A DNA stretch of 31,955 nt. Source: a virus. Its lineage: Duplodnaviria > Heunggongvirae > Uroviricota > Caudoviricetes. The notes beneath the pieces are model-generated. The model did no database searches. It was not told where the DNA came from and was given only the letters and a program-made list of their open reading frames with translations. Below are positions 47-20,390 of the stretch, in pieces (positions within the stretch are counted from its first letter, which is position 1; each line of letters begins with the position of its first letter). A program made the translations under genes and the position numbers. The DNA lies in IMG/VR virus record IMGVR_UViG_2713896775_000007, positions 1 through 31,955 of that record; one strand, written 5' to 3'.

Positions 47-1387
47 TTGGCACCATTACCCAAGTTTATTGAAGCAGACTTTGGGCTGAATGTGGCAATG
101 CGTATAGCTAATGATGAAAATATTTTGCTCAAGAAAAGTAGATTCTTTTGTGGGGGAAAGAGTCAGGAGGCATCGTCATATTCACAGTTTGTGCAAGGAT
201 CATATTTTCCTGGCGAATCCATCGAACATCTTAAAACAAAAGCCAAAGAAACTGACAAGTGGGGATGTAATAATATAACTTTTTCTGATTCAATACAGCT
301 AAGTTTAGATGGTGCCCCTACTGCATTAGTAGACGTCTTCAATGATATTGATTCTTCGTTGGCAACCAAAGAGAAAATCGAATTTCCTAAATCGGAAAAA
401 ATCACTGACGAGTCAAAGATAGATGAGCTTGATAATTATCTACTTCAATCGATCATTAAAGATGATGTAAATGTTATTATAGATGAGATTCAATCTTTTG
501 GTGCCTCTATTGTAATTAATAATTCTTTGACATTTTTTAAATTGCACACAAAAGTTGAGGGGAGTGGAAAGTATCTTCAATCAGCAGATAAGGTTAATGA
601 CATAAAAATAACAGATGTTAAGCAATTTATAAAAAACAACGACATAAAGGATGTCAATAAAGTTTTTGTTAAGATAACTAATGAAAATAACAGTGGTCAT
701 ACGGCCTCGCTAAAAGAAATATTGAGTATTACTTATAGCGATGGCAGTGAGCACTACTTCCTTAAGAGGGGAGGGTGGAGTCGATTTAACTCTGCCTTTA
801 TGAAGTATTTGTCTACCTCTTTAGCCAGTATAAAATTTGAGGTTAAAGATGCTCTAAAGGAAGACGACTTCAAAGCATGGCAAGCTGAAAAAATAAAACA
901 AATCGAAGAAGGAACTTCTAAAGACAAATTAGAATATAGAGAGTACTATTTTAATGAAAAGATGTCTGTTGAGAAAGGTTATATACTTCTAGATCGCCAG
1001 CTCAAAAAAATACCATCCTTACGTGATGATGGAAAGGACTACAATGTTGAAGTTGCAGATCTTTATAAAAATGGAGAGATTATTGCTGTAAAGATATCAG
1101 ATAAACCGCATGATCTAATTTATAATATTGAGCAGTCAAAAACTACAATTCAAACTATAGTAAGAGGAGTAGTAAAATTTGAAGAGAAAATTACTGATGT
1201 GGTTTTATGGATCTCAACTACTACAAAAGCCAAAAAATTGATTGACATCAATTCTATCCAATTTTTATTAGCGGTTCAAACTTGGAAGGAAGTTGTTGAA
1301 GGATTTAATTTGAAACCAAAGATATATTATTCGCATCACGACAAACCCAAAAAGAAAAAGGAAAAGAAAAAGCCAAAAAACGGTTGA
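47..1387 (+). CDS. Hypothetical protein, 446 aa, lysine-rich C-terminal tail (HHDKPKKKKEKKKPKNG); no recognisable catalytic motif
   Basis: Long uninterrupted ORF bounded by an in-frame stop at 35..37; TTG at 47 or ATG at 98 as start; AT-rich; convergent with the downstream operon. Confidence 0.5.
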   Translation: MAPLPKFIEADFGLNVAMRIANDENILLKKSRFFCGGKSQEASSYSQFVQGSYFPGESIEHLKTKAKETDKWGCNNITFSDSIQLSLDGAPTALVDVFNDIDSSLATKEKIEFPKSEKITDESKIDELDNYLLQSIIKDDVNVIIDEIQSFGASIVINNSLTFFKLHTKVEGSGKYLQSADKVNDIKITDVKQFIKNNDIKDVNKVFVKITNENNSGHTASLKEILSITYSDGSEHYFLKRGGWSRFNSAFMKYLSTSLASIKFEVKDALKEDDFKAWQAEKIKQIEEGTSKDKLEYREYYFNEKMSVEKGYILLDRQLKKIPSLRDDGKDYNVEVADLYKNGEIIAVKISDKPHDLIYNIEQSKTTIQTIVRGVVKFEEKITDVVLWISTTTKAKKLIDINSIQFLLAVQTWKEVVEGFNLKPKIYYSHHDKPKKKKEKKKPKNG

Positions 1388-1495
1388 TTAAAAATATTTA
1401 ATTTCCTTATCGAATAATTTCAGGAGAGAAAAGAACATTCTAATTACCACATTATCAATATTATTTGAGTGTATTGATGGATTTAAAATCTTATG

Positions 1496-1534
1496 TGGTG
1501 GTGTTATGTGAAACTTACACCACCATTGTTTATT
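1496..1534. terminator. Candidate bidirectional intrinsic terminator between convergent genes
   Basis: 9-bp perfect stem TGGTGGTGT (1496..1504) / ACACCACCA (1517..1525), 12-nt loop, followed by TTGTTTATT. Confidence 0.45.
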
Positions 1535-1648
1535 GAACATTTTTAAGAACTTTCAAAATTTACTCTGGATGTTGGTTATAAACTCCATAGCTGATAAGCT
1601 GTGGCACTATTTATGCAATCATAGTGCCCTCATAATCTCTGTACGATT

Positions 1649-3469
1649 TTATTTGAAATGAATTAAACCATAGTTGCCTCTTAATTCATTATCAACAAGA
1701 GTAAAGTTCGTCATTTCTCTGTCAAGCCAATAAGACTCTTCAATATGCTCTAACAGTATTATTTGGAAACCACCATGAGACCGCATTTTCTCAACAAAAG
1801 AATTAATTTCATTTAGGGCTGCATCAAGACTTGCAAAGTCATCAGTTTTTTTACCAGCAGTACTAAAATATGGAGTGCTGGGCTGGTCAATGACTAAGAA
1901 TCGTGGAACCCACGGTACTTTTCTATCTCTTACCAATTCGTGAAGTGCAAGGAAATAAGCTACATGTACATACATATAGTTAGAAGCACTTCCAATATCT
2001 ATCATTTTTTCAACTTGATTTTTATTTATTAAATCAAGTGTTTTTTTTGCCTTGTTGAATATCGGAGTTGCATCCTCAAATCCTTTTAAAGGCATCCGTT
2101 TGAATATTTCCTTTATTTTTCCGTTCAGTAAACTCAATGTATATTCTTTAAAGGCATTATTATCTGTTATCTTGCTTTCTAACTCATTAATTTTAGTAGT
2201 TATCTTTTCTATAGTATCAGTATAATCATATTTAGGGAGAACAACTATCCGTTTAATTTCAGAGCTGAGTTCACCCATGAACCGATAAAGCTCGATTGGC
2301 GTGATTTTTTCATCACTAACAGTTGCAAGTTTTTTACTCAAGGATGATATTTTAAGTTCTAACTCTTTTCTCTTAGCATTTGTTTTTGATATGAGTGAGT
2401 TTTGTCCTTTTTCGGCTATAGCCTTTTTTATCTCTGAGCTTTGGTTCAATAAGGATTTAATGATTGAATAGATTTTTTTTGTATATAATATTTCGCTATA
2501 ATTATCATCTAGATATTTGGCTATTAAAAGAGAGTCTTGGTTATCTTTTAAAAACTTCTTATATTCAGTATTTGTTTCTATATATTCATTAATGTCTGTC
2601 AGTTCTTTTTTTAAGAGGAAAAGTTCTTTTTCAATTTTTGTTCTTTCATTAATTGCTGGGATTTCGTTTATATCCTTGTAATTAACTATCGCTTTCAAAT
2701 TTTCAAGTTTATCACTTACAGTTGGTTCATTCTTGCTGTTTTCACTTATTAAACCAAAATAATACGCCCTGTCGTATAGTGATTCTATTTCACTTTCGAA
2801 ATTGAAATAAGAGTCTTTGCTAGCCGACTGTTTATATTCGATACGAGCAAGATTCCTTTGTAATTCTTCTAACCGCGTTCTCATTATCATAGTTTCGGCG
2901 TTTTCACTGCCAAGAGCCATGTCAAAGGTTCGGTCAATACGCTCTCTTGTCTTTAAATCAGAGATTTTCGAATAAAGATGTTCTGAAGAGGTTAGTGTTG
3001 TTTGATCTATAAAGCAATGCGGGATAAAATATCTATAGGATACTTTTGACCCTTGTTGTATGAATCTACCACCATAAGGGATTTTTAGAGAACTATTAAT
3101 ACCAAACTCATAATTCAGATGTTCTTTTAAAACATCCTTTTTGATATTGTTAATAGGGATTTGTGGAATGCCTCCATTTTTGTCAAAGTAAACTAGATCA
3201 TCTTCTTCAAAGTGTGTCGCTTTTCTACAAATAGTGAAATATTTACCGTTTATACTTAATCTAATCCCATACCAATTTACAAAATTATCGACATTTGTTT
3301 TTGATATACCATCAGATGATGAGGATAAAAGGCAATAATCAATGATAGCCAGTATTGAGGATTTCCCTTTGCCAGAATCACCTGTTATTACATTTACCTT
3401 ATTTTCCTCAAGTTCTAAATTCCTCAAGGTTGAATCAATTTGCCATATTAAAATATTAGTAATCTGCAT
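1649..3469 (-). CDS. SMC/Rad50-like ABC ATPase with coiled-coil insert; LmuB-like ATPase component of a Lamassu/ABC-3C system
   Basis: N-terminal Walker A GDSGKGKSS; long K/E/L-rich central segment (coiled coil); C-terminal Walker B-like RFLVIDQPS and H-loop-like QIILLEH; 1-nt overlap with upstream gene. Confidence 0.7.
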   Translation of the reverse strand: MQITNILIWQIDSTLRNLELEENKVNVITGDSGKGKSSILAIIDYCLLSSSSDGISKTNVDNFVNWYGIRLSINGKYFTICRKATHFEEDDLVYFDKNGGIPQIPINNIKKDVLKEHLNYEFGINSSLKIPYGGRFIQQGSKVSYRYFIPHCFIDQTTLTSSEHLYSKISDLKTRERIDRTFDMALGSENAETMIMRTRLEELQRNLARIEYKQSASKDSYFNFESEIESLYDRAYYFGLISENSKNEPTVSDKLENLKAIVNYKDINEIPAINERTKIEKELFLLKKELTDINEYIETNTEYKKFLKDNQDSLLIAKYLDDNYSEILYTKKIYSIIKSLLNQSSEIKKAIAEKGQNSLISKTNAKRKELELKISSLSKKLATVSDEKITPIELYRFMGELSSEIKRIVVLPKYDYTDTIEKITTKINELESKITDNNAFKEYTLSLLNGKIKEIFKRMPLKGFEDATPIFNKAKKTLDLINKNQVEKMIDIGSASNYMYVHVAYFLALHELVRDRKVPWVPRFLVIDQPSTPYFSTAGKKTDDFASLDAALNEINSFVEKMRSHGGFQIILLEHIEESYWLDREMTNFTLVDNELRGNYGLIHFK

Positions 3470-3915
3470 TATAATCTAACTCCACAAATGTCATATATAT
3501 TGTGTGGTTCTTCTAATAATAAACGTGCAACGTTTATAGATGCTGCCTGTATTTTTACGGCTCTTTTGCCAATAAACGGGATCGCATTATCTAATATTAA
3601 CTTGTTTTTAAATGCTAATTTACCGTGTTCTAATTCAGCTATTCCATTTTCAAGGCACAATGAAACACAATTAACTGAGGATGGAAGGAAATTATAGAAT
3701 CTTTTATTTATGGATACTATTATTTCGGGCTTGGTTAAAAGTAGATCTTGAAAAGATAGTGTATTGGTTCTCTTGTGGGCAAGGTAATCTAAGCTTTTTT
3801 TATGAAATATAATTGGTAAAATTAGCATTGCATTGCTTATTTCAATATTTGATGCTATTGATAACACCTCTTGCAAAGAGAATATACCCAAAAGCTCATT
3901 GTTATATATTTTCAT
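3469..3915 (-). CDS. Small middle component (LmuC-like) of a three-gene Lamassu/ABC-3C operon
   Basis: 148-aa ORF sandwiched between effector and ATPase with 4-nt (ATGA) and 1-nt overlaps, implying translational coupling; size and position fit the middle component. Confidence 0.5.
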   Translation of the reverse strand: MKIYNNELLGIFSLQEVLSIASNIEISNAMLILPIIFHKKSLDYLAHKRTNTLSFQDLLLTKPEIIVSINKRFYNFLPSSVNCVSLCLENGIAELEHGKLAFKNKLILDNAIPFIGKRAVKIQAASINVARLLLEEPHNIYDICGVRL

Positions 3916-5111
3916 TTATAGACTGACTCCCAGTTTTGAAGCCATCCTATTTTGGGCTTATCTGAAAGGAGCAAGAACGTTCCTGTAGTCATAGATTTAG
4001 GTAATTGATTTTTATCCAACACAATATTACAGTTTCCTGTCAATTCAGTATAGACAGAGAAGGCTTTATTAAGATGATCTTCATTTATTTCTGTAAAACG
4101 GCTTCGTATATACGTTGCTGAATGACGTGATTGCCATTCATCAAGCGCTTTTAGATATATTAGTCTTTCTTCTTGAGTTGTTAAATCTCCAGAGCTTTGC
4201 AATTTTTGAATGAAAGCTTCTGTTTTGGCCATTTCATTTATATATTTTACGATTGAATCGCTATTCAAATCCAAATCTTTGAGTTGTTTGTAAGATATCT
4301 TTGATTCAACGTTAGTTGGGTATGCAGATTCAAAATCGTAGTATTGGTCGAAATTATTTATACAATTTCTTGAAATTTGAATAATCCTATCTATTCCCAA
4401 ATTATTTCGAAAATCATCATAACTTATATTTATTTTGGTGTGATTTTTAACCAAATCATATTTATGTTTAAAAAAAGCACCTGAAATATAATTAAAAGCA
4501 TCATCTATTTTATCATCAGGGATTGCTAATGTTTTTAGTAATGTTTTTATTTGGCGGATGATCCCATCTTCGCTATGTTGAAAACTTATACTATTAAATA
4601 AACGTTTAGAAGAATTGCTATCGAGTGAGTTTATGATAGAAATATACTTATAAAGGTCATCTGACTTATTTTTATGATCTTGTTCTATCTTTTCTATTTC
4701 ATCTTTTATTTTTTCAATGTCCTTAGTGTCGTTAGTCAAAAGTTGCACGATACCAGGCTCTAAGGTAAGACCTTTGTTAGTGTAAAAAATAAGGCTAATG
4801 CTTTTGTCGCCTATGGTCTTAATCGCCTCTGACCAATTATATAATGTTTTCCATAAGTCTATGTCTTTATTAGTTATATTAGACTTGTTAATTGAATGTT
4901 TAACTTGAACCAAAGTTTTATGACCCTCGATGCTCTCAAGATGGAGATCGTCATAAACTTCAATCCCAATGTGTTCTTCTGGTTTAAGCTCTAAGGCATG
5001 TTTTAAAGCAACGTAATCTTGATAGGTAAAACCTATTGAATTTTTGTCAGCATTAGTTTTTTCAAAGAAATCCATATGGTAGCCCACTAAGGAAACAAGC
5101 AATGAAAGCAT
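3912..5111 (-). CDS. Effector component (LmuA-like) of a Lamassu/ABC-3C system; N-terminal region compatible with a PD-(D/E)xK-type nuclease
   Basis: 399-aa ORF, first gene of the operon; N-terminal IGIEVYDDLHLE...LVQVKHS resembles a D...(E/Q)xK nuclease signature; start uncertain (ATG at 5111 or 5075). Confidence 0.5.
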   Translation of the reverse strand: MLSLLVSLVGYHMDFFEKTNADKNSIGFTYQDYVALKHALELKPEEHIGIEVYDDLHLESIEGHKTLVQVKHSINKSNITNKDIDLWKTLYNWSEAIKTIGDKSISLIFYTNKGLTLEPGIVQLLTNDTKDIEKIKDEIEKIEQDHKNKSDDLYKYISIINSLDSNSSKRLFNSISFQHSEDGIIRQIKTLLKTLAIPDDKIDDAFNYISGAFFKHKYDLVKNHTKINISYDDFRNNLGIDRIIQISRNCINNFDQYYDFESAYPTNVESKISYKQLKDLDLNSDSIVKYINEMAKTEAFIQKLQSSGDLTTQEERLIYLKALDEWQSRHSATYIRSRFTEINEDHLNKAFSVYTELTGNCNIVLDKNQLPKSMTTGTFLLLSDKPKIGWLQNWESVYK

Positions 5112-5325
5112 AAAAAAACATCAGTATCTTTTTTTTACCATATCAAACACTAAAAACATATGGAAGCATACGTATCAAAGTTTAGTTATATAACCTTATG
5201 TTTTTATACTGGTTTTATGTACATGTGCGCTTTCAATCCGATGAGAATGTTTTAGCTAAGGGGCATTCGTCAGTATATGGGCTTTCCAGGCTCTCCCTAT
5301 CCTTCTTGCTAATCCCCTGTATCAG

Positions 5326-6555
5326 TCAAGCAGCGATAGCTTTAGCTCTTTGAGTTTGAACGTAATCACTCCACCATTGCATCAAACTCTGTCGTTCTAT
5401 CAGATATTCTGCACGATTGTATGCTGCGATAATTTCATCTTTTTTAGAGTGGGCGAGTGCTGCCTCAAGAACTTCAGCTCTGAACTTACCAGACTCCTCT
5501 GCCGCTGTTCTTGCAATCGAACGCATACCGTGAGCTACAAGTTCGCCTCCAAACCCCATTCGGATAATAGCTGCGTTGGCTGTTTGTTCATGCATATGAT
5601 TAAGAGGCGCTTTAATGCTGGGGAAAACCCATTCTCTATGCCCACTTATTGATTTCATTAATTCAAGGATGTGCAAAGCTTCTTTACTCAAAGGAACTTT
5701 GTGAGGCTTTTTCATTTTCATAAAATCAGCAGGAATGTTCCAAATGTTGTTGGTTGTATCAATATCAGACCACCTTGCGCGAACGGCTTCACCCGGACGA
5801 ACCCATGTCAACAATTGCCATTCAATTAGCATACGTGTTTCCAGCCGGATTGACGCATTCGTCAAAGATTCCATAAACCTTGGCAATTCGCTTGGGGGAA
5901 GGGCAGGCATATTTTGCTTTTTTGGTTTACTGAATCTTTGACCAAGGTTGTCAGCCGGATTGAACTCAATAAGTTCTTCAGTGGCTGCCCACCGGAAGAT
6001 TTCATTCAGACGTGAAATGATGCGGCGTAGAGTTTCCAATACGCCTCGTTGCTCAATAGGATCAAGGTGTTGTTTTAAGAGCTTAGGTCGGATCTCATTG
6101 ATAGGGACATTACCCAGGCCAGGAAAGACATTTCTCTCTAAGCTGCGCCAGATGTCTGCTGCATGGTCTTGTGAGATACCTGAGGTCTTTACCTTCTCAT
6201 CCAACCATTTCCTTGCCACGGCTTGGAGAGTGTGTTCAGTAGCATTCTTTAAGGCATTAGCTTTATCGTTGTTATGAACTTGGGGATCAATGCCATTAGC
6301 AAGCAAGGAAAGGTATTCATCTCGTAAGGCTCTGGCTCTTGCCAGTGTAAGGTGAGGATATGTCCCAAGGCTCATTTTGGTTCTTTTTTTACTGACTGGC
6401 ACTGCATACCTGAAATACCAATTCTTCTTTCCTCCTTTCGAGAGGGGAGCGATTCGTAGTATCAAACCATCTCCGTCAAACAAGTTGATTTCTTTGTCGG
6501 CTGGCTTGGTGCTTTTGATTTCAGTGTCAGTGAGCTTCTTAGCGATTTTTGCCAT
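5326..6555 (-). CDS. int: Tyrosine integrase, P4/CP4-57 (IntA) type
   Basis: N-terminal arm-binding-like region (TDTEIKSTKP...LFDGDGLILRI...WYFRY) and C-terminal catalytic region with R...H..R...Y-type residues (HGMRSIART...AYNRAEY); likely start at the internal ATG at 6555 rather than the longest ORF at 6597. Confidence 0.85.
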   Translation of the reverse strand: MAKIAKKLTDTEIKSTKPADKEINLFDGDGLILRIAPLSKGGKKNWYFRYAVPVSKKRTKMSLGTYPHLTLARARALRDEYLSLLANGIDPQVHNNDKANALKNATEHTLQAVARKWLDEKVKTSGISQDHAADIWRSLERNVFPGLGNVPINEIRPKLLKQHLDPIEQRGVLETLRRIISRLNEIFRWAATEELIEFNPADNLGQRFSKPKKQNMPALPPSELPRFMESLTNASIRLETRMLIEWQLLTWVRPGEAVRARWSDIDTTNNIWNIPADFMKMKKPHKVPLSKEALHILELMKSISGHREWVFPSIKAPLNHMHEQTANAAIIRMGFGGELVAHGMRSIARTAAEESGKFRAEVLEAALAHSKKDEIIAAYNRAEYLIERQSLMQWWSDYVQTQRAKAIAA

Positions 6556-6652
6556 TTTGGGACCCTCGGTTTTTGGACCCTTCTTAGTGGGTCCCATTCA
6601 GGGTGCCATAAGTGATAGTTCTCAGCAATTCTCACTGGACGACAATAGACGT

Positions 6653-6684
6653 AAAAAAGCCCGCAGAGCTTGTGCTGTGCGGGC
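6653..6684 (-). terminator. Candidate rho-independent terminator (minus strand) between the tmRNA fragment and the integrase
   Basis: Stem GCCCGCA / TGCGGGC with ~12-nt loop, followed on the minus strand by a T6 run (plus-strand AAAAAA at 6653..6658). Confidence 0.45.
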
Positions 6685-6720
6685 TTAGTAGACTTCATTG
6701 TACTTCAAACAACTAAAAAG

Positions 6721-6765
6721 TGGTGGAGCTGGCGGGAGTTGAACCCGCGTCCGAAATTCCTACAT
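6721..6765 (-). other. ssrA: 3'-terminal fragment of a tmRNA (ssrA)-like gene; probable attachment-site repeat
   Basis: Minus strand reads ATGTAGGAATTTCGGACGCGGGTTCAACTCCCGCCAGCTCCACCA: tRNA-like T-arm and acceptor 3' strand ending CCA, matching the E. coli ssrA 3' end as recalled; adjacent upstream sequence is AT-rich and not tmRNA-like. Confidence 0.75.
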
Positions 6766-6878
6766 ACTATTTTTACTGTAATAAAAACAGTGAATTACGT
6801 TTAAAAACAGTCCTTTAGTGTTATTTGCTGTTTATATGTTTTATGCGTTTTTAATGCTCTGCCGCCACTTTGTCGCCA

Positions 6879-7937
6879 TTAAATGCGCTGGTCATTTGAT
6901 ATAGGTAAAATGCTTGTAAAGAGTTTTTCGTCATATAGTGCGTACTCAGGTATGTAATCACCATTGCTTTTACCTGTTTGGAAGATAGAGGGGTCCTTGT
7001 CGATTAAAACATATAACTCAATGAGAATATTTCTTAGTCCCCAAAGCATTTGCTTTAGTTGTTTTTCATCATTGAATGAGATGCTTATGGCTTCCGTATC
7101 TGGTTTTGGATGTTCAGGAATTATTGAGAAAAGATGTTCTTGGTATTTATAATCAATTCCAAGTAGTCTGCAAAGTTGAATTATGTTTGATTCTATGAGT
7201 TGTAGGCTAACTAATTGGTTGTCATGATTTTTGTTGTTGGACTTAAGCGATTTGTTTATGTTGTTATAATGATTTGTTGTTTTTCGAATAAAATCTTCTT
7301 CGACAGCGGTGCTATAGCCATTATCAATGGAAGATGATTTGAAAATATTTTTATAAAGAGTGTACGGATGAACTACAGATAGTTCAATACTGTCTATATC
7401 ACTAGTTTCTTTATTTAATCTTGATAATTTAAATGTTGGTAGTGTTTGGAATATATCAGCGAAGCTTTTCAGATGTGAGTAATATGAATCAGTGGTGTTT
7501 TTTTCAATAATAAGATTGATTTGCTTTTGTGTTTTTTCTATTTGGTTCTCTGTTTGTGTGGTTCTATGTATATTGTTGACGATTGCTGCAAGAGGTACCG
7601 AAGAAGCTAAAATAAATAATGGCAATTTAGAGATGTCAAGAAAGTGATTAAAACCGTCTGATGTGAAATTTAAATTGTGGCCTTTCCAAGCCCAGAGGCC
7701 ATACAAAACAAACATTTTTAACGGTACGATAATAGATGCTATGAATAATGGTTGTTTTAATAGATTTTTCTCATTTAGTTTAAGCCAATTGAAGCAATAG
7801 AACATAAGTATCAATCCAAGTATATAAGCTACACTAAAGAAGATAAAAACTCTTGGACGATTAGTGTATATCAATGCTAAGGCAATTAAGATGGTAATGA
7901 TTGCGTAGGTAATGATTAATGTGAGTTTTTTTTTCAT
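6879..7937 (-). CDS. Hypothetical membrane protein (about 4 N-terminal TM helices plus ~230-aa soluble C-terminal domain); moron downstream of the prophage integrase
   Basis: ORF begins 4 nt after the integrase stop; hydrophobic segments LTLIITYAIITILIALALIY, VFIFFSVAYILGLILMFYCF, LFIASIIVPLKMFVLYGLWAW, LPLFILASSVPLAAIV; AT-rich; start 7937 or 7979. Confidence 0.5.
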   Translation of the reverse strand: MKKKLTLIITYAIITILIALALIYTNRPRVFIFFSVAYILGLILMFYCFNWLKLNEKNLLKQPLFIASIIVPLKMFVLYGLWAWKGHNLNFTSDGFNHFLDISKLPLFILASSVPLAAIVNNIHRTTQTENQIEKTQKQINLIIEKNTTDSYYSHLKSFADIFQTLPTFKLSRLNKETSDIDSIELSVVHPYTLYKNIFKSSSIDNGYSTAVEEDFIRKTTNHYNNINKSLKSNNKNHDNQLVSLQLIESNIIQLCRLLGIDYKYQEHLFSIIPEHPKPDTEAISISFNDEKQLKQMLWGLRNILIELYVLIDKDPSIFQTGKSNGDYIPEYALYDEKLFTSILPISNDQRI

Positions 7938-7941
7938 TCTA

Positions 7942-8958
7942 TTAAACCAAATTATGTAAAGGATTTTTTGTAACAGCATCTTCTAGATGGTCTGGAGAAA
8001 AGTGTGCGTAAACCATCGTCATTTTTATATCGGCATGGCCCAATATTTCTTTAAGGACAAGAATATTCCCGCCATTCATCATAAAATGACTGGCGAATGT
8101 ATGACGCAGCACGTGGGTGCATTGGCCCTCTGGTAGCTCGATGCCTGCTCGCTTTACTGCTCGTTCAAAGGCTTTTCTGCACGGTGTGAATAGTTTCCCT
8201 CTGTTCTTGGGGAGTTCATCATACAGATTTTGAGATATCGGCACGGTACGATTTTTCTTACCTTTTGTCTTGGTATAGGTGATCCGGTATTTTGATAACT
8301 GATGGCCCTGCAAGTTTTCTGCTTCACTCCATCGCGCACCAGTAGCCAGGCATATTTTTGCAATCATTAGTAGGCTGGTGTTTTGAGATTCGGCGCAGGC
8401 ATTAAGCAGGCGTTTGATTTCGTCCGTGGAAAGAAAAGCCAATTCACCTTCAGCAATTTTGAAGGTTGGAAGCCCTGCCAGCGGGTTTGGTGCGGACCAG
8501 TGCCCTAGTTTTTTCAATGTACCGAACACCGATGACAGGTTACGCTGCTCAAGATTAACTGTGCGAGGTTTAACGGGTGACATGAACGAGCCGTCTTCAT
8601 TTTGGACCTCCCCCTTTAATCTGGCTTCCCGATATTTTGTGAAATCACCTGCTGTCAGCTCAGAGGCGATGGGATCGCCTAGACCATTACAGATAATTCT
8701 AAGTTTCGCCATCAGGCGTTTGGGGTCTGCGAGTGTTTGACCATATAGGGAATACCACTGCTCAATCACTTCTGATAATCGCCGCCGATCTTCCTTCTCA
8801 CCAAGCCATGGCTTTTTGTTTACTTCGTCCATGGTGAAGCTTTCAAATGCAATGGCTTCGCCTTTGGTAGCAAATTGCTTACGCACGCGCTTACCATTGC
8901 GTCCATTGGGATAGCACTCACACAACCATTTTCCGTTCGGCTGTTTTCTGATGGTCAT
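7942..8958 (-). CDS. int: P2-type tyrosine integrase
   Basis: 338 aa; conserved blocks GRNGKRVRKQF, TGARWSEA, HVLRHTFASHFMMNGGNILVLKEILGH...MVYAHF. Confidence 0.9.
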   Translation of the reverse strand: MTIRKQPNGKWLCECYPNGRNGKRVRKQFATKGEAIAFESFTMDEVNKKPWLGEKEDRRRLSEVIEQWYSLYGQTLADPKRLMAKLRIICNGLGDPIASELTAGDFTKYREARLKGEVQNEDGSFMSPVKPRTVNLEQRNLSSVFGTLKKLGHWSAPNPLAGLPTFKIAEGELAFLSTDEIKRLLNACAESQNTSLLMIAKICLATGARWSEAENLQGHQLSKYRITYTKTKGKKNRTVPISQNLYDELPKNRGKLFTPCRKAFERAVKRAGIELPEGQCTHVLRHTFASHFMMNGGNILVLKEILGHADIKMTMVYAHFSPDHLEDAVTKNPLHNLV

Positions 8959-8961
8959 AAG

Positions 8962-9600
8962 TTAGAGGTTCTTGATTACTTTGACTGCACGTCCTACGAC
9001 TTCCACATCATCTACAGAACATTCAAATGAAGTGTCATCTTGGTTAACTACTATTTTGTTTCCGGGTATGCGCGCAATTTTGACGATGCTTTTAACTCCG
9101 TCCATATCGACTAACCAGAAGCCATTACTGACTTGTTTAACGGACGTATCCACTACAAAGCTATTATTAGCTGTTTTAACAAATAAAGCGTTGGATGAGT
9201 CACCATCGAGCAGGCTGCTATCAAGAAGAATTTCATCACTTGCCTGCAGTTCGCCGTTCTTCAGTTCAACACGTTTGATGCTAGGAGCAACGATCTTAGA
9301 AAGTGGTCTTACAGTGACGGGAGGTTCATTTTTGAGATTTGTTTCTTCGTTCTCACACGCATACATATCTCCTTGACCAGTAGCCAGCCATAGAAGGGAA
9401 ACTCCTGTTTCAAGGGCACATTGAATTACCCATTCGGCAGGAAAGCTATCCCTTAAGTATCTGTTAGCCATAGTGCTTTTGGATACCTCCAGATGTTCGC
9501 AGAGCTGCTGTCGTGAGCTGAAGTTGTAAGCCTTAATAAGCCTGTTAATTGCATCGCGCCCACCACTATCATTTCCCGCCTTGATCAAACTCATAATCAA
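8962..9600 (-). CDS. cI: CI-type immunity repressor (phage 186 CI family)
   Basis: N-terminal HTH block RYLRDSFPAEWVIQCALETGVSLLWLATGQG typical of 186-type CI; divergent from the early lytic promoter. Confidence 0.8.
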   Translation of the reverse strand: MIMSLIKAGNDSGGRDAINRLIKAYNFSSRQQLCEHLEVSKSTMANRYLRDSFPAEWVIQCALETGVSLLWLATGQGDMYACENEETNLKNEPPVTVRPLSKIVAPSIKRVELKNGELQASDEILLDSSLLDGDSSNALFVKTANNSFVVDTSVKQVSNGFWLVDMDGVKSIVKIARIPGNKIVVNQDDTSFECSVDDVEVVGRAVKVIKNL

Positions 9601-11835: not shown

Positions 11836-12689
11836 GTACCATCCTGAAATGGGCGGGTAATAAAACTGCCATTATGTCCGAACTGAAAAAACATCTTCCT
11901 GCTGGCCCGCGACTGGTTGAACCTTTCGCGGGTTCCTGTGCTGTGATGATGGAGACGGATTACCCCAGCTATCTTGTTGCGGATATTAATCCTGATTTAA
12001 TCAACCTCTATAAAAAGGTTGCTGCTGATTGCGAGGCGTTTATATCTCGTGCCAGAGCTTTATTTGAGGAAGCAAACAGGGAGTTGGCTTATTACAACAT
12101 AAGGCAGGAGTTTAATTACTCCACTGAAATTACTGATTTCATGAAAGCGGTATATTTCCTGTATCTCAATCGTCATGGTTACCGTGGGTTATGTCGTTAT
12201 AACAAGAGCGGGCATTTCAACATTCCATACGGTAATTATAAAAATCCGTATTTCCCTGAAAAAGAAATTCGCGCATTTGCAGAGAAAGCCCAGCGAGCAA
12301 CGTTTATCTGCGCCAGCTTTGATGAAACGCTGGCGATGCTGCAGGTGGGGGATGTGGTGTATTGCGATCCGCCTTATGACGGTACGTTTTCCGGCTATCA
12401 CACTAACGGCTTCACTGAAGATGACCAGTATCACCTGGCATCTGTTCTTGAATATCGATCATCAGAAGGTCATCCAGTCATTGTTTCTAACAGTGACACA
12501 TCCCTGATCCGTTCGCTGTATCGAAACTTCACTCACCACTACATCAAGGTAAAACGCAGCATCGGCGTGTCGGCTGGCGAGAGTAAATCTGCAACAGAAA
12601 TCATTGCTGTGTCCGGGGCGCGCTGCTGGGTGGGATTTGATCCTTCGCGTGGCGTGGATAGTTCTGCCATGTACGGAGTGCGTGCATGA
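11832..12689 (+). CDS. dam: Dam-family DNA N6-adenine methyltransferase
   Basis: ILKWAGNK N-terminus, FAGSCAV (AdoMet site) and catalytic DPPY motif; SD GGAGG before ATG 11832. Confidence 0.9.
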
Positions 12690-15100
12690 GCCATGATGAT
12701 ATGAACAACTGCAGCGGCTTTAACGAGGTCGCCGCAGCATTCTCATGGAACAGCCCGAAAAAGGCCATTAACCCTTATCTGGACCCGGCGGAAGTTGCGC
12801 CGGTTTCTGCGCTTTCAAACCTGATCACTCTGTACGCTGTCGATAACGAGCAGGAACAGCTGCGCCGCGAGGCACTGAGTGATCAGGTCTGGGAGCGTTA
12901 TTTCTTTAATGAATCCCGTGATCCTGTCCAACGCGAAATGGAGCAGGATAAACTCATTAGCCGGGCAAAGCTGGCGCATGAGCAGCAGCGTTTTAATCCG
13001 GATATGGTCATTCTGGCGGACGTCAACGCCCAGCCTTCCCATATCAGCAAGCCGCTGATGCAACGTATTGAATACTTCAGCAGCCTGGGCAGGCCAAAGG
13101 CTTATTCCCGCTATTTGCGTGAGACGATTAAGCCATGTCTGGAACGACTGGAGCATGTACGCGAGAGTCAGCTATCCACTTCTTTTCGCTTTATGGCAAG
13201 CCATGAAGGGCTGGACGGCCTGCTGATCCTGCCTGAAATGAGTCAGGATCAGGTGAAACGCCTGTCTACTCTTGTCGCTGCGCATATGAGCATGTGTCTT
13301 GATGCCGCTTGTGGTGATTTGTACACCACCGAAGATGTTAAGCCAGAAGAAATCCGCAAGACATGGGAAAAGGTGGCAGCAGAAACCCTGCGACTGGATG
13401 TCATACCGCCTGCGTTTGAGCATCTCCGCCGGAAAAGAAACCGCCGTAAACCCGTGCCCTATGAACTTATTCCGGGTTCGCTGGCGCGTATGTTGTGCGC
13501 CGACTGGTGGTACCGGAAATTATGGAAGATGCGTAGCGAATGGCGGGAAGAGCAGTTGCGTGCTATTTGCCTGGTCAGCAAAAAAGCATCTCCCTATGTC
13601 AGCTATGAAGCCGTGATGCATAAACGTGAGCAGCGCCGTAAGTCGCTGGAGTTTTTCCGTTCTCATGAACTGGTGAACGAAGACGGCGACACGCTGGATA
13701 TGGAAGACGTGGTAAACGCCAGCAGCAGCAACCCTGCGCATCGCCGCAATGAGATGATGGCCTGTGTTAAAGGTCTGGAGCTTATCGCGGAAATGCGCGG
13801 TGACTGCGCCGTTTTCTACACCATCACCTGTCCGTCACGTTTCCATTCCACGCTAAATAACGGCAGGCCAAACCCGACCTGGACCAACGCGACAGTAAGA
13901 CAAAGCAGCGATTATCTGGTCGGCATGTTTGCTGCATTTCGTAAGGCTATGCACAAAGCCGGGTTGCGCTGGTATGGCGTGCGGGTGGCTGAGCCGCATC
14001 ATGATGGCACAGTTCACTGGCACCTGTTGTGTTTCATGCGCAAAAAAGACCGCCGTGCCATCACTGCATTACTGCGTAAGTTTGCCATCCGTGAAGACCG
14101 CGAGGAGCTGGGCAATAACACTGGGCCGCGCTTTAAGTCTGAGTTGATTAACCCGCGCAAAGGAACGCCGACAAGCTACATCGCGAAATATATCAGTAAG
14201 AACATTGACGGTCGTGGTCTGGCTGGCGAGATCAGCAAGGAAACGGGTAAATCTCTGCGTGATAACGCTGAATACGTGAATGCCTGGGCGTCTTTGCATC
14301 GTGTTCAGCAATTCCGCTTCTTTGGCATTCCGGGGCGTCAGGCTTACCGTGAACTGCGATTGTTGGCTGGTCAGGCGGCAAGGCAACAGGGGGACAAAAA
14401 TGCAGGTGCGCCGGTACTGGATAACCCGCGTCTTGATGCCATTCTGGCTGCTGCTGATGCTGGTTGTTTTGCCACCTACATCATGAAGCAGGGCGGCGTA
14501 CTGGTTCCCCGTAAATATCACCTCATCAGAACCGCTTATGAAATCAACGAAGAGCCGACCGCCTATGGCGATCACGGCATTCGTATTTATGGCATCTGGT
14601 CACCCATTGCAGAGGGCAAGATCTGCACTCATGCAGTGAAGTGGAAAATGGTTCGTAAAGCCGTTGACGTTCAGGAGGCGGCAGCCGACCAGGGCGCTTG
14701 CGCCCCTTGGACTCGTGGCAATAACTGTCCCCTTGCTGAAAATTTGTACCAACAAGGGAAAGACAAATCAGCTGATGGAGATACCAGAACGGATATCACC
14801 CGTATGGATGACAAGGAGTTGCACGATTACCTGCACAGTATGAGCAAAAAAGAGCGCCGGGAACTGGCAGCAAGGTTACGCCTGGTGAAACCGAAACGGC
14901 GTAAAGACTACAAACAGCGAATTACAGATCATCAGCGACAGCAGCTCGTGTATGAACTGAAGTCCAGGGGATTTGATGGCAGCGAGAAAGAGGTCGATTT
15001 ACTCCTTCGCGGCGGCAGTATTCCGTCAGGAGCAGGCCTGCGTATCTTCTATCGGAACCAGCGTTTGCAGGAAGATGATAAGTGGCGGGATCTGTATTAA
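12686..15100 (+). CDS. A: Replication initiation endonuclease gpA (rolling-circle, HUH type)
   Basis: 804 aa; HUH-like [11 protein letters not shown] and tyrosine motif YIAKYISKN. Confidence 0.9.
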
Positions 15101-15169
15101 TTACGCGGGTTAACAATTCGTGCTCTTAATAATACCAGGCATATCAGGCTGATGAACGTAAAAAAACGT

Positions 15170-15196
15170 TTTACATCAGTAAGATTATTATATACT
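15170..15196 (+). promoter_or_regulatory. Candidate SOS promoter for the orf62/dinI-like operon
   Basis: TTTACA (15170..15175), 15-nt spacer, TATACT (15191..15196), with the -10 overlapping the LexA box. Confidence 0.4.
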
Positions 15197-15212
15197 GTAA
15201 ATATAAACAGTG
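15193..15212 (+). promoter_or_regulatory. LexA (SOS) box
   Basis: TACTGTAAATATAAACAGTG = CTGT-N8-ACAG with AT-rich spacer, 41 nt upstream of orf62. Confidence 0.75.
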
Positions 15213-15252
15213 GTTATGTATACAGTATTGCTTTGGTGTCATAGGAGGAAAG

Positions 15253-15441
15253 ATGCAGGCCTATTTTTTGGAGTCTTTGAAGCTCCAGCGCATTGATTTT
15301 TTTCTTAAGCTTGTAGCGGCTAGTGAGTGTAGTGATGAAGAGAAGGGGCTGGCTTTGCAGTGGGTTTCTGAACTAACAGATGAACTCATGGCAAAAATCA
15401 GAACCCACGAATACAACCGCTCAATGGATGTCATCAGCTGA
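15253..15441 (+). CDS. Small SOS-controlled protein (candidate Tum-like antirepressor; function not established)
   Basis: SD AGGAGG at 15243..15248; directly downstream of the LexA box; first gene of a two-gene unit with the DinI-like gene. Confidence 0.45.
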   Translation: MQAYFLESLKLQRIDFFLKLVAASECSDEEKGLALQWVSELTDELMAKIRTHEYNRSMDVIS

Positions 15442-15451
15442 GGTGACTTTT

Positions 15452-15685
15452 ATGCGCATTGAAATAATGATCGATAAAGAGCAGAAGATTAGCCAGTCTA
15501 CCCTGGACGCTCTGGAGTCCGAGCTTTACCGCAACCTGCGCCCCCTGTATCCCAAAACGGTAATTCGTATCCGTAAAGGTAGCTCTAACGGTGTGGAACT
15601 GACCGGACTGAAACTGGACGAAGAAAAAAAACAAGTGATGAAAATTATGCAGAAGGTGTGGGAAGACGACAGCTGGCTGCATTAA
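15452..15685 (+). CDS. DinI-like protein
   Basis: MRIEIMIDK...LESELYRNLRPLYP...WEDDSWL resembles DinI; SD GAGGTGA before ATG 15452. Confidence 0.8.
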   Translation: MRIEIMIDKEQKISQSTLDALESELYRNLRPLYPKTVIRIRKGSSNGVELTGLKLDEEKKQVMKIMQKVWEDDSWLH

Positions 15686-15999
15686 GAAACGTTGCCCCCA
15701 GGAGGATTCATTCTGAAGGGGGCTAGTTTGGGCAACGAGTGAAATAAGGTGTAAGGTCATTTTGATAAATGATCGTCTGCTTTGTGCAAGATGCAAACGT
15801 TTCTTCTGCTAACTTTCGTTAATTAACGAATGGCAGACTAATTCGCAACGGATAATCTGAATTTTGTAAGATTATGGGCATTTCTATAAAATTTACTAAT
15901 AATAACCTTACAATGTACACTACCGATTGAATTTTCCATAGTTGGCCTTTGGCTCTACTTACCATCTATGTTTATGTATTTTATCAAAATGGACTAAAA

Positions 16000-17892
16000 A
16001 TGAACAATACGTACATCAAAGACTATATAGAATATTACCTTAGCCTTACAACTGAACCTCAATACGCCATTATGCTTAAAGGTGCTTGGGGATCAGGTAA
16101 AACTTGGTTCATTGAACAAGTTCTTGAAGAATATAAGCAGAAGAATTCAGAGTTTAAATTTCTAAAAGTGAGTTTGTATGGCGTCAACTCTATTAAGCAG
16201 ATTGAAGATGAGTTCTATCGTCAACTTCATCCTGTCCTATCAAACAAAGCCCTTATCTTTGGTGCAAATGTACTAAAAAATACGCTTAAGGCTACTTTCA
16301 AGATCGATCTCAATGGCGATAATAAATCTGACGTTGATGTCAATACCAATGTTCCCACCATTAATCTTAACGATTTTAGTAGAAAACCAGATGGTTTTGT
16401 GCTGGTCTTTGATGATATCGAGAGAGCTGGTATAGATTTACCAATTTTATTTGGATATATAAACCACTTTGTAGAAGTAAACGGATACAAAGCGATCTTG
16501 GTTGCCAATGAAGAAGAAATAATCAATAGAGAAAAGCGAATAAATAATGATGATGAGAAATCTAGCAGCGAATACATGAGAACAAAAGAAAAGCTTGTTG
16601 GTAAAACATTTGAAGTAACGTCAGATTTACATAGTGCTTGTAATGTTTTTTTGGGCGTAATTAGCAGTTTACACGTTGCTAATATATTTAAAGAAGATAT
16701 GCAGGCCATAGAAGACATCTATGTGTCGGCGAAATATAATAATCTAAGACACTTGAGGCAGTTCTTTCTTGATGTACAACGCATCATTTCCCTTTTTGGA
16801 AATAAATATGTCAGCAACGACGATTTTATGAGGGTATTTTTCCAGCAGTTGTTAATTTTCTCGATAGAGTACCGGGGAGGGAACCTTAACTACGAGGAAT
16901 TCGATTCAATCAGCAATGTTAATTATGGTATGTTTTTAGGTAAAGAGCGTACCAAAACTAAGTATGACATGATCGTCGAGAAATATTCATCTCCTGTATT
17001 AACCGAGAAGTTACTGGATGGTGCGTACTGGAGGGAGCTAATCTGTGATGGAAAGGTAACGAGTGAACTTCTCGCTCAGTTGGATATTACGCGATTTTTT
17101 AGAAGCACCGATGCCCAAGCATGGGAGTATTTGTGGAACTATCGAGAACTTAATGAAACTATGCTTAATGAGCAGTACGCCATTGCCAAGGATAATCTAT
17201 TTTCAGGTAAGATCACTTCCTTAGGTGAACTCCTGATGACCGCGAGTATTTTGCTGGACATGGCGAAAGAAGGTCTAACAACAGATGATGTTCATGATCT
17301 CATAAATGAGACAAAACAGAATATAAATAATTATTATAATAGACTTAGAGCTGAAGATATACATAAGGAATATGCGCAAACGCATTATAACGAATTAAGG
17401 GCATGGCGTGGCTTTGGTTTTCTTGACAGGGATAGCGATGAATTCAAACTCATTATTGAGCATATTGAGATAGCGAAGAAGAAACGGTTTGATGAATCAA
17501 TTCCGGAATTTGCGTTGCAGTTCAGCGATGAGTTGCAAAGGGGAAACTTATCGTTTGTATCTGAATTGAGTCATTCTAATAATAGGCAGTTAAATCTTCA
17601 TAACGTGCCTTTTTTACACTTGGTTCCTCCTGAAGTTTTCATTGAAAGCTATAGGAAACTTGACCCAGTCCTCATGAGGAAACTGGCATTTAGCTTGCGG
17701 AATCGTTATTCTGATGGGGATGCTAGAACCAGACTGACCGAAGAATACAACTGGTTGATTAACCTAAAAGAGATAGCTGTAGATTTCACTCAAAACGCAG
17801 CCAATAACTCCTTTCAGGTTTTTCACGTAAAGTTTTTTATTGACTATGTATTAACTAGCGCAATCAAATTCTTTACTGAGGGAACTGATTAA
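16000..17892 (+). CDS. KAP-family-like P-loop NTPase (cargo; candidate anti-phage gene)
   Basis: Walker A GAWGSGKT and Walker B VLVFDDIER (hhhhDD-x-ER, KAP-like) about 115 aa apart; large helical C-terminal region; AT-rich; likely start ATG 16000. Confidence 0.75.
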   Translation: MNNTYIKDYIEYYLSLTTEPQYAIMLKGAWGSGKTWFIEQVLEEYKQKNSEFKFLKVSLYGVNSIKQIEDEFYRQLHPVLSNKALIFGANVLKNTLKATFKIDLNGDNKSDVDVNTNVPTINLNDFSRKPDGFVLVFDDIERAGIDLPILFGYINHFVEVNGYKAILVANEEEIINREKRINNDDEKSSSEYMRTKEKLVGKTFEVTSDLHSACNVFLGVISSLHVANIFKEDMQAIEDIYVSAKYNNLRHLRQFFLDVQRIISLFGNKYVSNDDFMRVFFQQLLIFSIEYRGGNLNYEEFDSISNVNYGMFLGKERTKTKYDMIVEKYSSPVLTEKLLDGAYWRELICDGKVTSELLAQLDITRFFRSTDAQAWEYLWNYRELNETMLNEQYAIAKDNLFSGKITSLGELLMTASILLDMAKEGLTTDDVHDLINETKQNINNYYNRLRAEDIHKEYAQTHYNELRAWRGFGFLDRDSDEFKLIIEHIEIAKKKRFDESIPEFALQFSDELQRGNLSFVSELSHSNNRQLNLHNVPFLHLVPPEVFIESYRKLDPVLMRKLAFSLRNRYSDGDARTRLTEEYNWLINLKEIAVDFTQNAANNSFQVFHVKFFIDYVLTSAIKFFTEGTD

Positions 17893-17957
17893 CTTTTTGT
17901 TGATTAACATAGGCAATATTATTAGAAGTACTAGGGATAGTCAGTAAAATTATTAAC

Positions 17958-17989
17958 GTCCGCTTCGCTCAAAGCGGACTTTGTGCTTT
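17958..17989 (+). terminator. Rho-independent terminator after the KAP NTPase gene
   Basis: GTCCGCTT (17958..17965), loop CGCTCA, AAGCGGAC (17972..17979), then TTTGTGCTTT. Confidence 0.6.
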
Positions 17990-18177
17990 ATAAAAACGAG
18001 AGTTTTGTTTTTCAAGCGGTCATTCGGTTACGGGATTTCACTTCCCCCGTAAGTGCATGACTATGCCGCATGAGATCGCATGATCGTTTGCGGATCGTTT
18101 TTGCTAAGGCACGCCAGAACTGGTGGGATTTTGCGTAGATCATGCGCCTGCATGAAAACCGCTACATAAAGCGGGCA

Positions 18178-18197
18178 GGCGTGGCGGGGATACGAGC
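18178..18197. other. Candidate cos site (P2/186-type cohesive-end sequence) inside a GC-rich non-coding block (17990..18274)
   Basis: GGCGTGGCGGGGATACGAGC followed by GCGCGCTG; the first 13 nt match the 186/P2 cohesive-end consensus GGCG(A/T)GGCGGGGA as recalled, and the GCGCGCTG just downstream also matches P2. Confidence 0.45.
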
Positions 18198-18304
18198 GCG
18201 CGCTGTATGCCTGAAGTGGCTAAAATAGTATCTGTCATAGGTACAACTTAGTGTAGTATCATCCATATAATCCATTGAAATATAATCGACTCTCATTAGA
18301 GGTG

Positions 18305-19303
18305 ATGATGAACGGAATCTGGTACGAAAACACTCATACACGCATTCCTAATTTTGAAACAACAGTACATCAAAAGCACAAATTCGGTTACGCTTATGAA
18401 ACAACAAGTCATTTTGTGCATCTGTATGGGCGTGACGTGGGATTTAATGTAATATCAGTTGGGTTAACTGTTATTGAGCAACGAAGTGGAACTCTCAATG
18501 ATTGGGTTCGGAGAGTATTTGGGGCTCAGAACATATCTCCTTTAGATAATGAAATTGGACATGTAACTAGGGGAGTGTGGCGGCCATCCTTATATTATGT
18601 CAATGATACAGAAACAGCATTAGGTATCGATGAGTTTGAAAAAAGAGCAACAGAGCAAGCTCTAAGAGTTTTGATAGAAAAACTCGATGATATTTTTCTA
18701 TATGTAGAACCAAGTGCCCATGGTTTGATTTCTTACAGTCATAAATGTAGAGAGCTATTAATTCTTGCTTGTACTGAGGTTGAAAATCAATGGGTGTCAA
18801 TCATTGGTAATTCGAATTTATCTCGTTCAAATGGTCGATACTCCACAAATGATTATGTGAAATTATTAGATAAGTGTTATTTGTCTGAATATAAAATTCA
18901 ATATTTGAATTATGACGGATTAAGGCATTTCAAACCTTTTGATGGGTGGAATGCAAGTACCCCTACAACATCTTTGTCATGGTATAATGCATATAATAAA
19001 ACTAAACATGATAGATCAGGAGCATTCCACTTTTCCACTTTAGAAAATGTAATGGATGCAGTTGCTGCTTGTGTTGTAATGTACTGTGTAAAATATGGCC
19101 CGTTTAGCTTATTGGAAGCCAATACGTCTCTATCAACGATCGTTAATCAAAACTTTTCAATTTCATTAGATAATAGCAATCCAGCAAGTTATTACATTCC
19201 TGAAATTGAACTTCCACCGGATACAAGAACGGATTTATTAATTTATGATTGTTATCGAGAAAACCATAATAAAGCATGGGTCACTGATCCCCTAGTGCTC
19301 TAA
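18305..19303 (+). CDS. Hypothetical protein, about 333 aa (cargo); possible HEPN-like Rx4H motif (speculative)
   Basis: AT-rich ORF after the cos-like block; C-terminal KTKHDRSGAFHFSTLENV contains R-x4-H; start ATG 18305 or 18308 (ORF track begins at TTG 18275). Confidence 0.55.
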   Translation: MMNGIWYENTHTRIPNFETTVHQKHKFGYAYETTSHFVHLYGRDVGFNVISVGLTVIEQRSGTLNDWVRRVFGAQNISPLDNEIGHVTRGVWRPSLYYVNDTETALGIDEFEKRATEQALRVLIEKLDDIFLYVEPSAHGLISYSHKCRELLILACTEVENQWVSIIGNSNLSRSNGRYSTNDYVKLLDKCYLSEYKIQYLNYDGLRHFKPFDGWNASTPTTSLSWYNAYNKTKHDRSGAFHFSTLENVMDAVAACVVMYCVKYGPFSLLEANTSLSTIVNQNFSISLDNSNPASYYIPEIELPPDTRTDLLIYDCYRENHNKAWVTDPLVL

Positions 19304-19312
19304 TTTCCTGCT

Positions 19313-19342
19313 AAAGGGAGCTTTTAATTATAAACGCTCCCT
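19313..19342. terminator. Candidate bidirectional terminator between convergent cargo genes
   Basis: AAGGGAGC (19313..19320), 14-nt AT loop, GCTCCCTT (19335..19342). Confidence 0.45.
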
Positions 19343-19359
19343 TCGGTTGTCGCTATTTA

Positions 19360-19986: not shown

Positions 19987-20033
19987 TCTGGGTTCATCAA
20001 ATTCATGGCCATTATCACAACGCCACTCTGATT

Positions 20034-20333
20034 TTATAGTTTTCCTTTGAAGAATTTTTTTGCTTTGCAGTCTAGGTTAATACATTTGTTACGCTTCTTA
20101 TTAATGCTCTGTGTTTCTAATTTTTCAATAACAGATATACCTAAAATATTTTCTCTGTTGGTAATAATAATAATATCACCGTCTTTTACATTTTTGTGGT
20201 TCGCTACAAAACTGTCATAGCGATAGAAAACTGATGAGTCATCGGGATAACTATCATTTCCCCAGTATCTAAGATCGTCTTTCTCAATTGCCTTAAAAAA
20301 AACCATACTTGCTGTACCATGAACTTTTCCCAC
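20034..20333 (-). CDS. Small beta-rich N-terminal domain ORF (likely N-terminal portion of the frameshifted HNH gene)
   Basis: 99-aa ORF ending just after an A7 run; a single A insertion would fuse it in frame to the HNH ORF. Confidence 0.4.
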   Translation of the reverse strand: MGKVHGTASMVFFKAIEKDDLRYWGNDSYPDDSSVFYRYDSFVANHKNVKDGDIIIITNRENILGISVIEKLETQSINKKRNKCINLDCKAKKFFKGKL

Positions 20334-20390
20334 TAATCAAATTTTGGTTTGTTCTATCGAACAGCAAAGCATGTTGATATACAAGAGAAA

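Follow-up and report, generated by a model that had tools for sequence, protein, structure and literature searches.

This locus raises a question of origin and one of use: is the AT-rich gene that separates the integrase gene of a prophage from its attachment site part of the phage backbone or mobile cargo, and what could its membrane protein product do in the lysogen? The window, i.e., the whole stretch of 31,955 nucleotides analysed here (IMG/VR virus record IMGVR_UViG_2713896775_000007, positions 1 to 31,955), carried this gene, called gene X below, on the minus strand at positions 6879..7937, with its stop codon at 6879-6881. The ORF list and the sequence confirmed what a first-pass annotation had proposed, an ORF of this extent starting 4 nt past the integrase stop. 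The first ATG of the frame is located at 7979 and would give a 366-aa product (6879-7979) overlapping int, and the ATG of MKKKL (7935-7937) lies 4 nt from the integrase stop codon (TAA, 7942-7944). The second start was preferred because of this spacing, because a RefSeq 'hypothetical protein' of E. coli KL53, 98.9% identical to X, is annotated with 352 aa, and because X homologues begin at the equivalent point, either abutting the int stop or overlapping it by 4 nt (ATGA). The true product is likely the 352-aa membrane protein beginning with MKKKL, and the start at 7979 was dropped.

The GC content of gene X was 31.6% (29.7% at third codon positions), as compared with 46.0% in int, 42.9% in cI and 56.2% in the structural genes (20.4-32 kb), so that the sharp compositional difference claimed at first, here 31.6% against 46-56% in int and structural genes, holds. 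At the base composition of the gene itself, a stop-free run of 352 codons would arise with a probability of about 5e-12. That X codes for a protein is shown by its homologues and by the confident AlphaFold2 (AF2) fold (see below).

The element that hosts X is a Fels-2/186-like E. coli prophage inserted at ssrA; the earlier label of a 'P2-type' prophage was corrected on the basis of its CI/Apl/CII/Fil genes and its ssrA attachment. Directly upstream of X, on the same minus strand, lies a Fels-2/186-type tyrosine integrase gene (7942..8958; Pfam Int_N and Phage_integrase), whose product is 93% identical to the Fels-2 Int and 55% identical to the 186 Int, preceded by the gene for a 186-type CI repressor (8962..9600, minus strand; a PHROG repressor, 'phage repressor protein CI' in RefSeq). 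The gene neighbours in the prophage were CI, an Apl/Rha-like protein, CII, Fil, DUF2732, a DksA-like protein, Dam and GpA. The cI gene is presumed to be the first of a lysogenic operon cI-int-X. In the phage 186 record promoter pL drives the lysogenic operon cI-int-orf69, with a predicted operon terminator beyond attP, and a simple scan of the window found no promoter near the X start and no terminator between int and X; on these two grounds co-transcription of cI, int and X in the lysogen is likely.

Downstream of the X stop codon, and directly adjacent to it, is the att arm region (6766..6878, minus strand) with Int arm-type repeats ATGGCGACA / GTGGCGGCA, recognized in an alignment of the interval between the last stop codon and the core in six elements: the window, Fels-2, RE-2010, SopEPhi and two E. 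coli prophages. Within it, positions 6860-6870 match YRYCGCCAYTY, which is the 186 arm consensus YAYCGCCAYTY relaxed at one position. The arm region is followed by the att core, ATGTAGGAATTTCGGACGCGGGTTCAACTCCCGCCAGCTCCACCA, at 6721..6765 (minus strand), which repeats the 3' end of ssrA (tmRNA) and marks the prophage boundary; its extent of 45 nt is assumed from the E. coli ssrA sequence. The Rfam tmRNA model gave a partial alignment ending at 6721 (E 1.7e-13), ARAGORN found no complete tmRNA in the window, and the sequence match with KL53 stops at the core. The first terminator-like hairpin downstream of cI-int-X detected in the terminator scan (6657..6671, minus strand) is located just beyond the ssrA 3'-end copy, outside the prophage. 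As the ssrA-derived core is followed by this hairpin and then by a P4-type integrase, the prophage ends at the core and X is its last gene. An Rfam match to the IsrM sRNA (6653-6730) scored 56.6 bits where the gathering score is 376 and was rejected as a real IsrM; overlapping the ssrA 3' end and the terminator, it is probably due to shared ssrA-flank sequence.

Other elements of the window are given here for orientation. A second mobile element stands in tandem at ssrA (47-6597), an AT-rich island with a P4-type integrase (5326-6597, minus strand); it holds a Lamassu system with an LmuA/Cap4-nuclease (3912-5111), an LmuC-like MC3 protein (3469-3915) and LmuB (1649-3469), and also a DUF6119/TIGR04141 gene at 47-1387. 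In the prophage the ORF at 12686-15100 was assigned to GpA from the KL53 gene order, and the AT-rich stretch past it (15000-20400) was taken to be the GpA-GpQ hotspot. This stretch contained a PADLOC candidate PDC-S49 protein (15949-17892, E 4e-159), a 342-aa unannotated ORF (18275-19303) with no match in PADLOC or NCBIfam, and an HNH-like ORF (19360-19986, minus strand).

We compared the int-att intervals of related phages. In Fels-2 the arm-type repeats (ATGGCGGCA...TGGCGGCAG) begin directly past the int stop codon, and the core lies about 115 bp further with no gene between. The same arm region of about 115 bp comes after the stop codon of X in the window, so X stands exactly between int and att, and the site that it fills is empty in Fels-2 in spite of 93% identity of the integrases, which supports the insertion that had been claimed. 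The slot holds the 83-aa orf69, different from X, in phage 186, and in RE-2010 and SopEPhi the arm region comes after the stop codon of orfY, an unrelated gene of 401 aa that also occupies the interval in Cartapus. Since Fels-2 lacks X and 186 has orf69 in its place, a conserved backbone gene is ruled out. Gene X thus showed what is expected of cargo in the int-att slot of P2/186-like phages, i.e., a position inside the prophage, an empty site in Fels-2, a deviating composition and cassette turnover between conserved flanks. The first-pass annotation had called the gene a moron; this stands as far as prophage cargo between int and att is meant, and fails in the sense of a sporadic one-off, as the family habitually fills the slot (see below).

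The orfY genes (~400 aa) make up a second unannotated cassette family of the int-att slot in RE-2010 (L028 204-1409), SopEPhi (L029 161-1372) and Cartapus (L030 1084-2289). The Cartapus record names the product 'putative RES protein, NAD+ binding domain', and searches in Pfam and PADLOC gave no match. In Klebsiella aerogenes an orfY homologue (L004 7184-8377), 49% identical to the RE-2010 gene, was found directly behind X; two cassettes can therefore stack.

A word-indexed search revealed 53 clusters related to X, all 'hypothetical' and all from Enterobacterales, and a second indexed search added unnamed relatives in Pseudomonas, Serratia, Providencia, Rahnella and others. An exhaustive profile search over 1.84 billion representatives returned 941 clusters (at 50% identity) with E <= 1e-3, 460 with E <= 1e-10 and 179 with E <= 1e-30. 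A profile scan of genome contigs, made with a narrower alignment, found 5 loci, and a search for other domain fusions with a profile of the core only gave fragments. A literature search on three accessions of the family retrieved no paper naming them.

The position of the gene is far better conserved than its sequence. The order cI-int-X was kept in K. aerogenes, K. pneumoniae, Citrobacter koseri, E. coli and Providencia at only 25-39% identity of X. By the criterion of our script, a Fels-2-type int was directly upstream in 63 of 71 IMG/VR viral contigs with an X relative, a sample skewed to Enterobacterales prophages by the method of locus retrieval; in two of three other viral contigs the relative likewise adjoined int. 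Among 61 non-identical prophage loci the median pairwise identity was 92.8% for Int and 33.8% for X, and in 91% of the locus pairs with Int at 90% or more the X proteins were less than 50% identical. The X proteins of these 61 loci fell into 25 clusters at 60% identity, and one X type occurred with differing CI types. The slot gene of E. coli TW10690 (309 aa), which looks like a different gene, proved to be of the same family, with 30% identity to X (hhalign probability 100%, E 2e-67). Divergent alleles of the X family habitually occupy the int-att slot.

In a set of 5,426 complete E. coli genomes any one allele was rare: that of the window was found in 6 at 99% identity or more, relatives of it at 60-80% in 9 (about 6 of which cover most of the gene), the TW10690 allele in 14, and an allele represented by protein P0015 in 7. 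In E. coli EC101 (NZ_CP196707.1 9313-10359; H12, H84) the annotation divides a 78%-identical allele into two hypothetical proteins, of which P0230 has 163 aa, and this split suggests a disrupted copy.

Relatives of X were also found away from int. On two P2-like viral contigs they lie between the portal gene (GpQ) and GpA, and one such hotspot (L100 3351-5491) holds two tandem paralogues with a 4-nt overlap, 43% identical in the core, whose C-termini give no BLASTP alignment and whose stalk linkers (see below) have 12 residues in one and 5 in the other. The relative in Dickeya adjoins DUF3577, DUF3275, DUF6094 and SNF2 genes, which we take to be genes of an integrative and conjugative element (ICE). 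Those in Pseudomonas are near transposase and PIN genes, or beside phage-tail and umuDC genes. In Pseudomonas veronii (L023 7106-8343) the next genes after the relative are two small unannotated ones (189 and 199 aa), with a transposase behind them; neither small gene had a match in Pfam or PADLOC, and they may be partners of the X relative or separate cargo. A 2026 survey (PMC13586616) placed most P2 defence systems in the GpA-GpQ interval and assigned 3% of P2 systems to the stretch between int and att, which it describes as a minor hotspot of defence. The family is thus present in both recognised P2 hotspots.

Four hydrophobic segments were found in X by Kyte-Doolittle hydropathy (residues ~5-25, 29-50, 62-84 and 103-123), consistent with the four or so N-terminal transmembrane (TM) helices proposed at the outset. 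They match helices in the AF2 model, which was built from a 36-sequence alignment and comprises helices 2-24, 28-48 and 63-84, a short helix 94-102, a continuous helix 104-164 and then an alpha/beta domain. The non-membrane remainder (124-352) has 229 aa, in agreement with the ~230-aa soluble part claimed. The pLDDT was 81.3 for full-length X and 89 for the C-terminal domain, the structure prediction advised for this domain thus giving a confident alpha/beta fold.

Conservation differed strongly along the protein. The pair TM1-TM2 (residues ~5-50; 7788..7925, minus strand), delimited by hydropathy, was poorly conserved, with 29% mean identity to X and reduced occupancy in alignment A1; it is missing from many members, and many family representatives begin at profile position 26-55. 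In the same alignment the mean identity to X was 62% in TM3, 86% in TM4, 54% in the proximal stalk and 22-30% in the C-terminal domain. The invariant columns define a conserved core of TM3 (62-84), a loop and TM4 (103-123) at 7569..7754 (minus strand), followed by a juxtamembrane stalk helix (124-164; 7446..7568, minus strand) that is part of the AF2 helix 104-164. The invariant or nearly invariant residues P106, H124, R125, T126, Q128, T129, Q132, I133, K146, N147, D150, H155 and K157 are found at or after the end of TM4. They belong to a conserved juxtamembrane motif, NNIHRTIQTxxQI...KNxxDxxYxHxK, seen in X as H124-R-T-x-Q-T-x-x-Q-I133 and K146-N-x-x-D-x-x-Y-x-H-x-K157. The hypervariable C-terminal alpha/beta domain (165-352, ~190 aa; 6882..7445, minus strand) completes the protein, and in the alignment columns of the family no invariant polar residue was found past Y195. 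As the TM4 and stalk motifs are conserved while this variable domain lacks conserved polar residues, it looks like a binding or sensor module rather than an enzyme.

The topology was examined through the charges of the segments. The K+R counts were 2.0 in the N-terminal tail, 0.6 in loop 1, 2.3 in loop 2, 1.2 in loop 3 (net negative) and 2.4 after TM4, a pattern that by the positive-inside rule points to a cytoplasmic N-terminus and a C-terminal domain that is probably cytoplasmic as well. The TM3-TM4 loop, with the invariant G95 and F99, would then probably be periplasmic. The linker between the two stalk motifs (residues 133-146 of X) varied in whole heptads: in 264 distinct family proteins it had 5 residues (n=206), 12 (n=49, the set to which X belongs), 19 (n=8) or 26 (n=1), and no other length was seen. 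The extra heptads look like Q[IL]xxTxx repeats. Steps of whole heptads mean that selection acts on the helical register that links the membrane part with the distal domain; such linkers are typical of coiled-coil signalling helices, and this one hints at an oligomer.

Comparison with known families gave little. The X protein of the window had no significant match in Pfam, NCBIfam or PADLOC (the best NCBIfam candidate, RoaM, reached 17 bits against a cutoff of 400 and was discarded), and its sole PHROG match was phrog_17460, of 'unknown function'. A sequence-profile search of solved structures in the PDB returned only designed coiled coils with E > 0.01. Among 60 family members there were only scattered Pfam matches below threshold, e.g., to the hydrophobic families DctQ and S_4TM, and scattered PADLOC-DB 2.0 matches with E > 0.001. 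Homology to a housekeeping transporter, which would have contradicted the moron proposal, was not seen, Pfam and NCBIfam matches of X being below threshold. Likewise, with no family match and 2-4 TM helices, X did not resemble O-antigen modification proteins (Gtr, Oac) or transporters, and it had neither the fold with the catalytic Rx4-6H of HEPN proteins nor that with the GS...DxD of nucleotidyltransferases, as in Abi systems of this type. RexA and RexB were rejected as homologues by hhalign against the family profile (probabilities of 0.1% and 0.3%, respectively).

A single lead came from one E. coli allele, which matched the PADLOC model PDLC00691 'Effector 2TM' of CBASS over TM3, TM4 and the stalk (E 8e-5). 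Two of 60 other members gave weak matches to 2TM models and 58 gave none, the X protein of the window itself had no match to these models, and no Pfam SLATT match was present among the 60 members. No cyclase or nucleotide-sensor partner gene was seen at any of the X-family loci examined. The match could reflect hydrophobic composition, and we regard it as a lead rather than as evidence of membership.

We propose, with a probability of roughly 0.4, that X is mobile prophage cargo encoding a single-gene membrane sensor-effector that would be made in the lysogen and act against other phages by heterotypic exclusion or abortive infection. Its gene would be read from the lysogenic promoter together with cI and int, with translational coupling to them, and the protein would insert in the inner membrane with its N-terminus and C-terminal domain in the cytoplasm. 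By means of its heptad-register stalk it would probably form oligomers. A component or a consequence of infection by another phage would be sensed by the hypervariable cytoplasmic domain, and the signal would run along the stalk to the conserved TM3-TM4 hairpin and the juxtamembrane polar motif, which could then permeabilise or depolarise the membrane and halt the infection. The anti-phage reading is strengthened by the hypervariability of X together with its presence in the GpA-GpQ hotspot. Against it, these same two properties equally fit superinfection exclusion, counter-defence or surface-related conversion, and the searches described above found no homology to a known defence, exclusion or toxin family.

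One of these alternatives, that X blocks genome entry at the inner membrane (e.g., by other P2/186-like phages) as a superinfection exclusion protein and does not kill the cell, seems rather unlikely, even if several properties would suit it. X is predicted to reside in the membrane and to be co-expressed with the repressor, in Felsduovirus-like phages it occurs strictly at the prophage ends, its hypervariability would suit an arms race with ejection proteins, and the probably periplasmic TM3-TM4 loop is conserved, including the invariant G95 and F99. However, the variable part is predicted to be cytoplasmic, and the short periplasmic loops (~4 and 18 residues) are conserved. The stalk that keeps its register points to allosteric signalling more than to a passive block, and relatives also occur in the Dickeya locus with ICE-like neighbours and in non-prophage Pseudomonas loci. 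We find it improbable that X is a lysogenic conversion factor unrelated to phages, acting on the envelope, stress or host interaction. The location would be a usual one, as O-antigen modification genes adjoin int-att in P22-like and Sf phages, and X is AT-rich, membrane-located and from a family without known function; SopEPhi, RE-2010 and Cartapus, moreover, hold another 401-aa gene of unknown role in the slot. Yet X carries no signature of a glycosyltransferase, acyltransferase, transporter or other enzyme, its soluble domain is free of invariant catalytic-type residues, it has only 2-4 TM helices, and both the extreme allelic turnover and the residence between GpA and GpQ are more typical of conflict genes.

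A role in the cycle of the prophage itself, within the cI-int operon, e.g., in modulating integration or excision, in induction or in the timing of lysis, would agree with the tight translational coupling to int and with the conserved operon position. It is nevertheless very improbable, because Fels-2 works without X and because relatives are found far from int, between portal and GpA or near ICE-like genes; in addition, 186 and RE-2010 hold unrelated genes in the slot, and one X type pairs with differing CI types. If, as we propose, X is anti-phage, a single-gene membrane system joins the defences of the Fels-2/186-like prophages, a common group in E. coli, Klebsiella, Salmonella and Citrobacter, and the int-att slot would carry a dedicated and fast-turning-over immunity cassette transcribed with the repressor. 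This would be relevant for phage therapy and typing, since near-identical prophages may differ in resistance spectra through X alone. The natural alleles, with a conserved effector and a hypervariable sensor part, are suited to domain swaps, and the heptad-only variation of the stalk offers a handle for insertions of 7 versus 3-4 residues. If X is not defensive, it still represents a large family that lacks any annotation.

A broader and more tentative proposal, which we hold as somewhat doubtful, is that X founds a new and widespread family of one-component transmembrane immune receptors composed of a sensor, a heptad-quantised stalk and a two-helix effector, and distributed as swappable cassettes. 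If true, it would add a new defence family whose signalling is nearer in its logic to that of sensor kinases and chemoreceptors than to that of known Abi proteins. Its cassettes would be carried in the two P2-type hotspots and on further mobile elements, in some cases as tandem paralogues that differ in their sensors.

Several known systems resemble X in part. In phage lambda, with the layout cI-rexA-rexB, the Rex genes are transcribed together with the repressor gene in the lysogen, as proposed for X, and RexB, which spans the inner membrane several times, is regarded as the effector, coupled to a cytoplasmic sensor; lambda Rex, however, consists of two proteins, whereas X is one polypeptide with a heptad-register stalk and a hypervariable domain. 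T4 Imm, P22 SieA and HK97 gp15 are small membrane proteins of phages or prophages that protect the cell against other phages. X has no sequence or PHROG link to them, is larger and differs by its structured, probably cytoplasmic variable domain. In the mycobacteriophage prophages Butters and Sbash, pairs of membrane and sensor genes reportedly defend against heterotypic phages; these pairs have two components and act in other hosts, whereas X is a single polypeptide. The 2TM/SLATT effectors of CBASS resemble X in having a conserved cytoplasmic helix behind a TM hairpin, but X carries its own domain of ~190 aa. With the cargo of P2-like hotspots (tin/old between GpA and GpQ, and that of int-att) X has in common the slots, the cassette turnover and the AT-richness (PMC13586616, PMC9122126), and, unlike that cargo, the X family has no entry in PADLOC 2.0. 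Cargo that varies and is probably related to conflict is thus already known from P2-type hotspots, and so is the slot itself, whereas the X proteins are a large, unannotated and uncharacterised family with a distinctive architecture.
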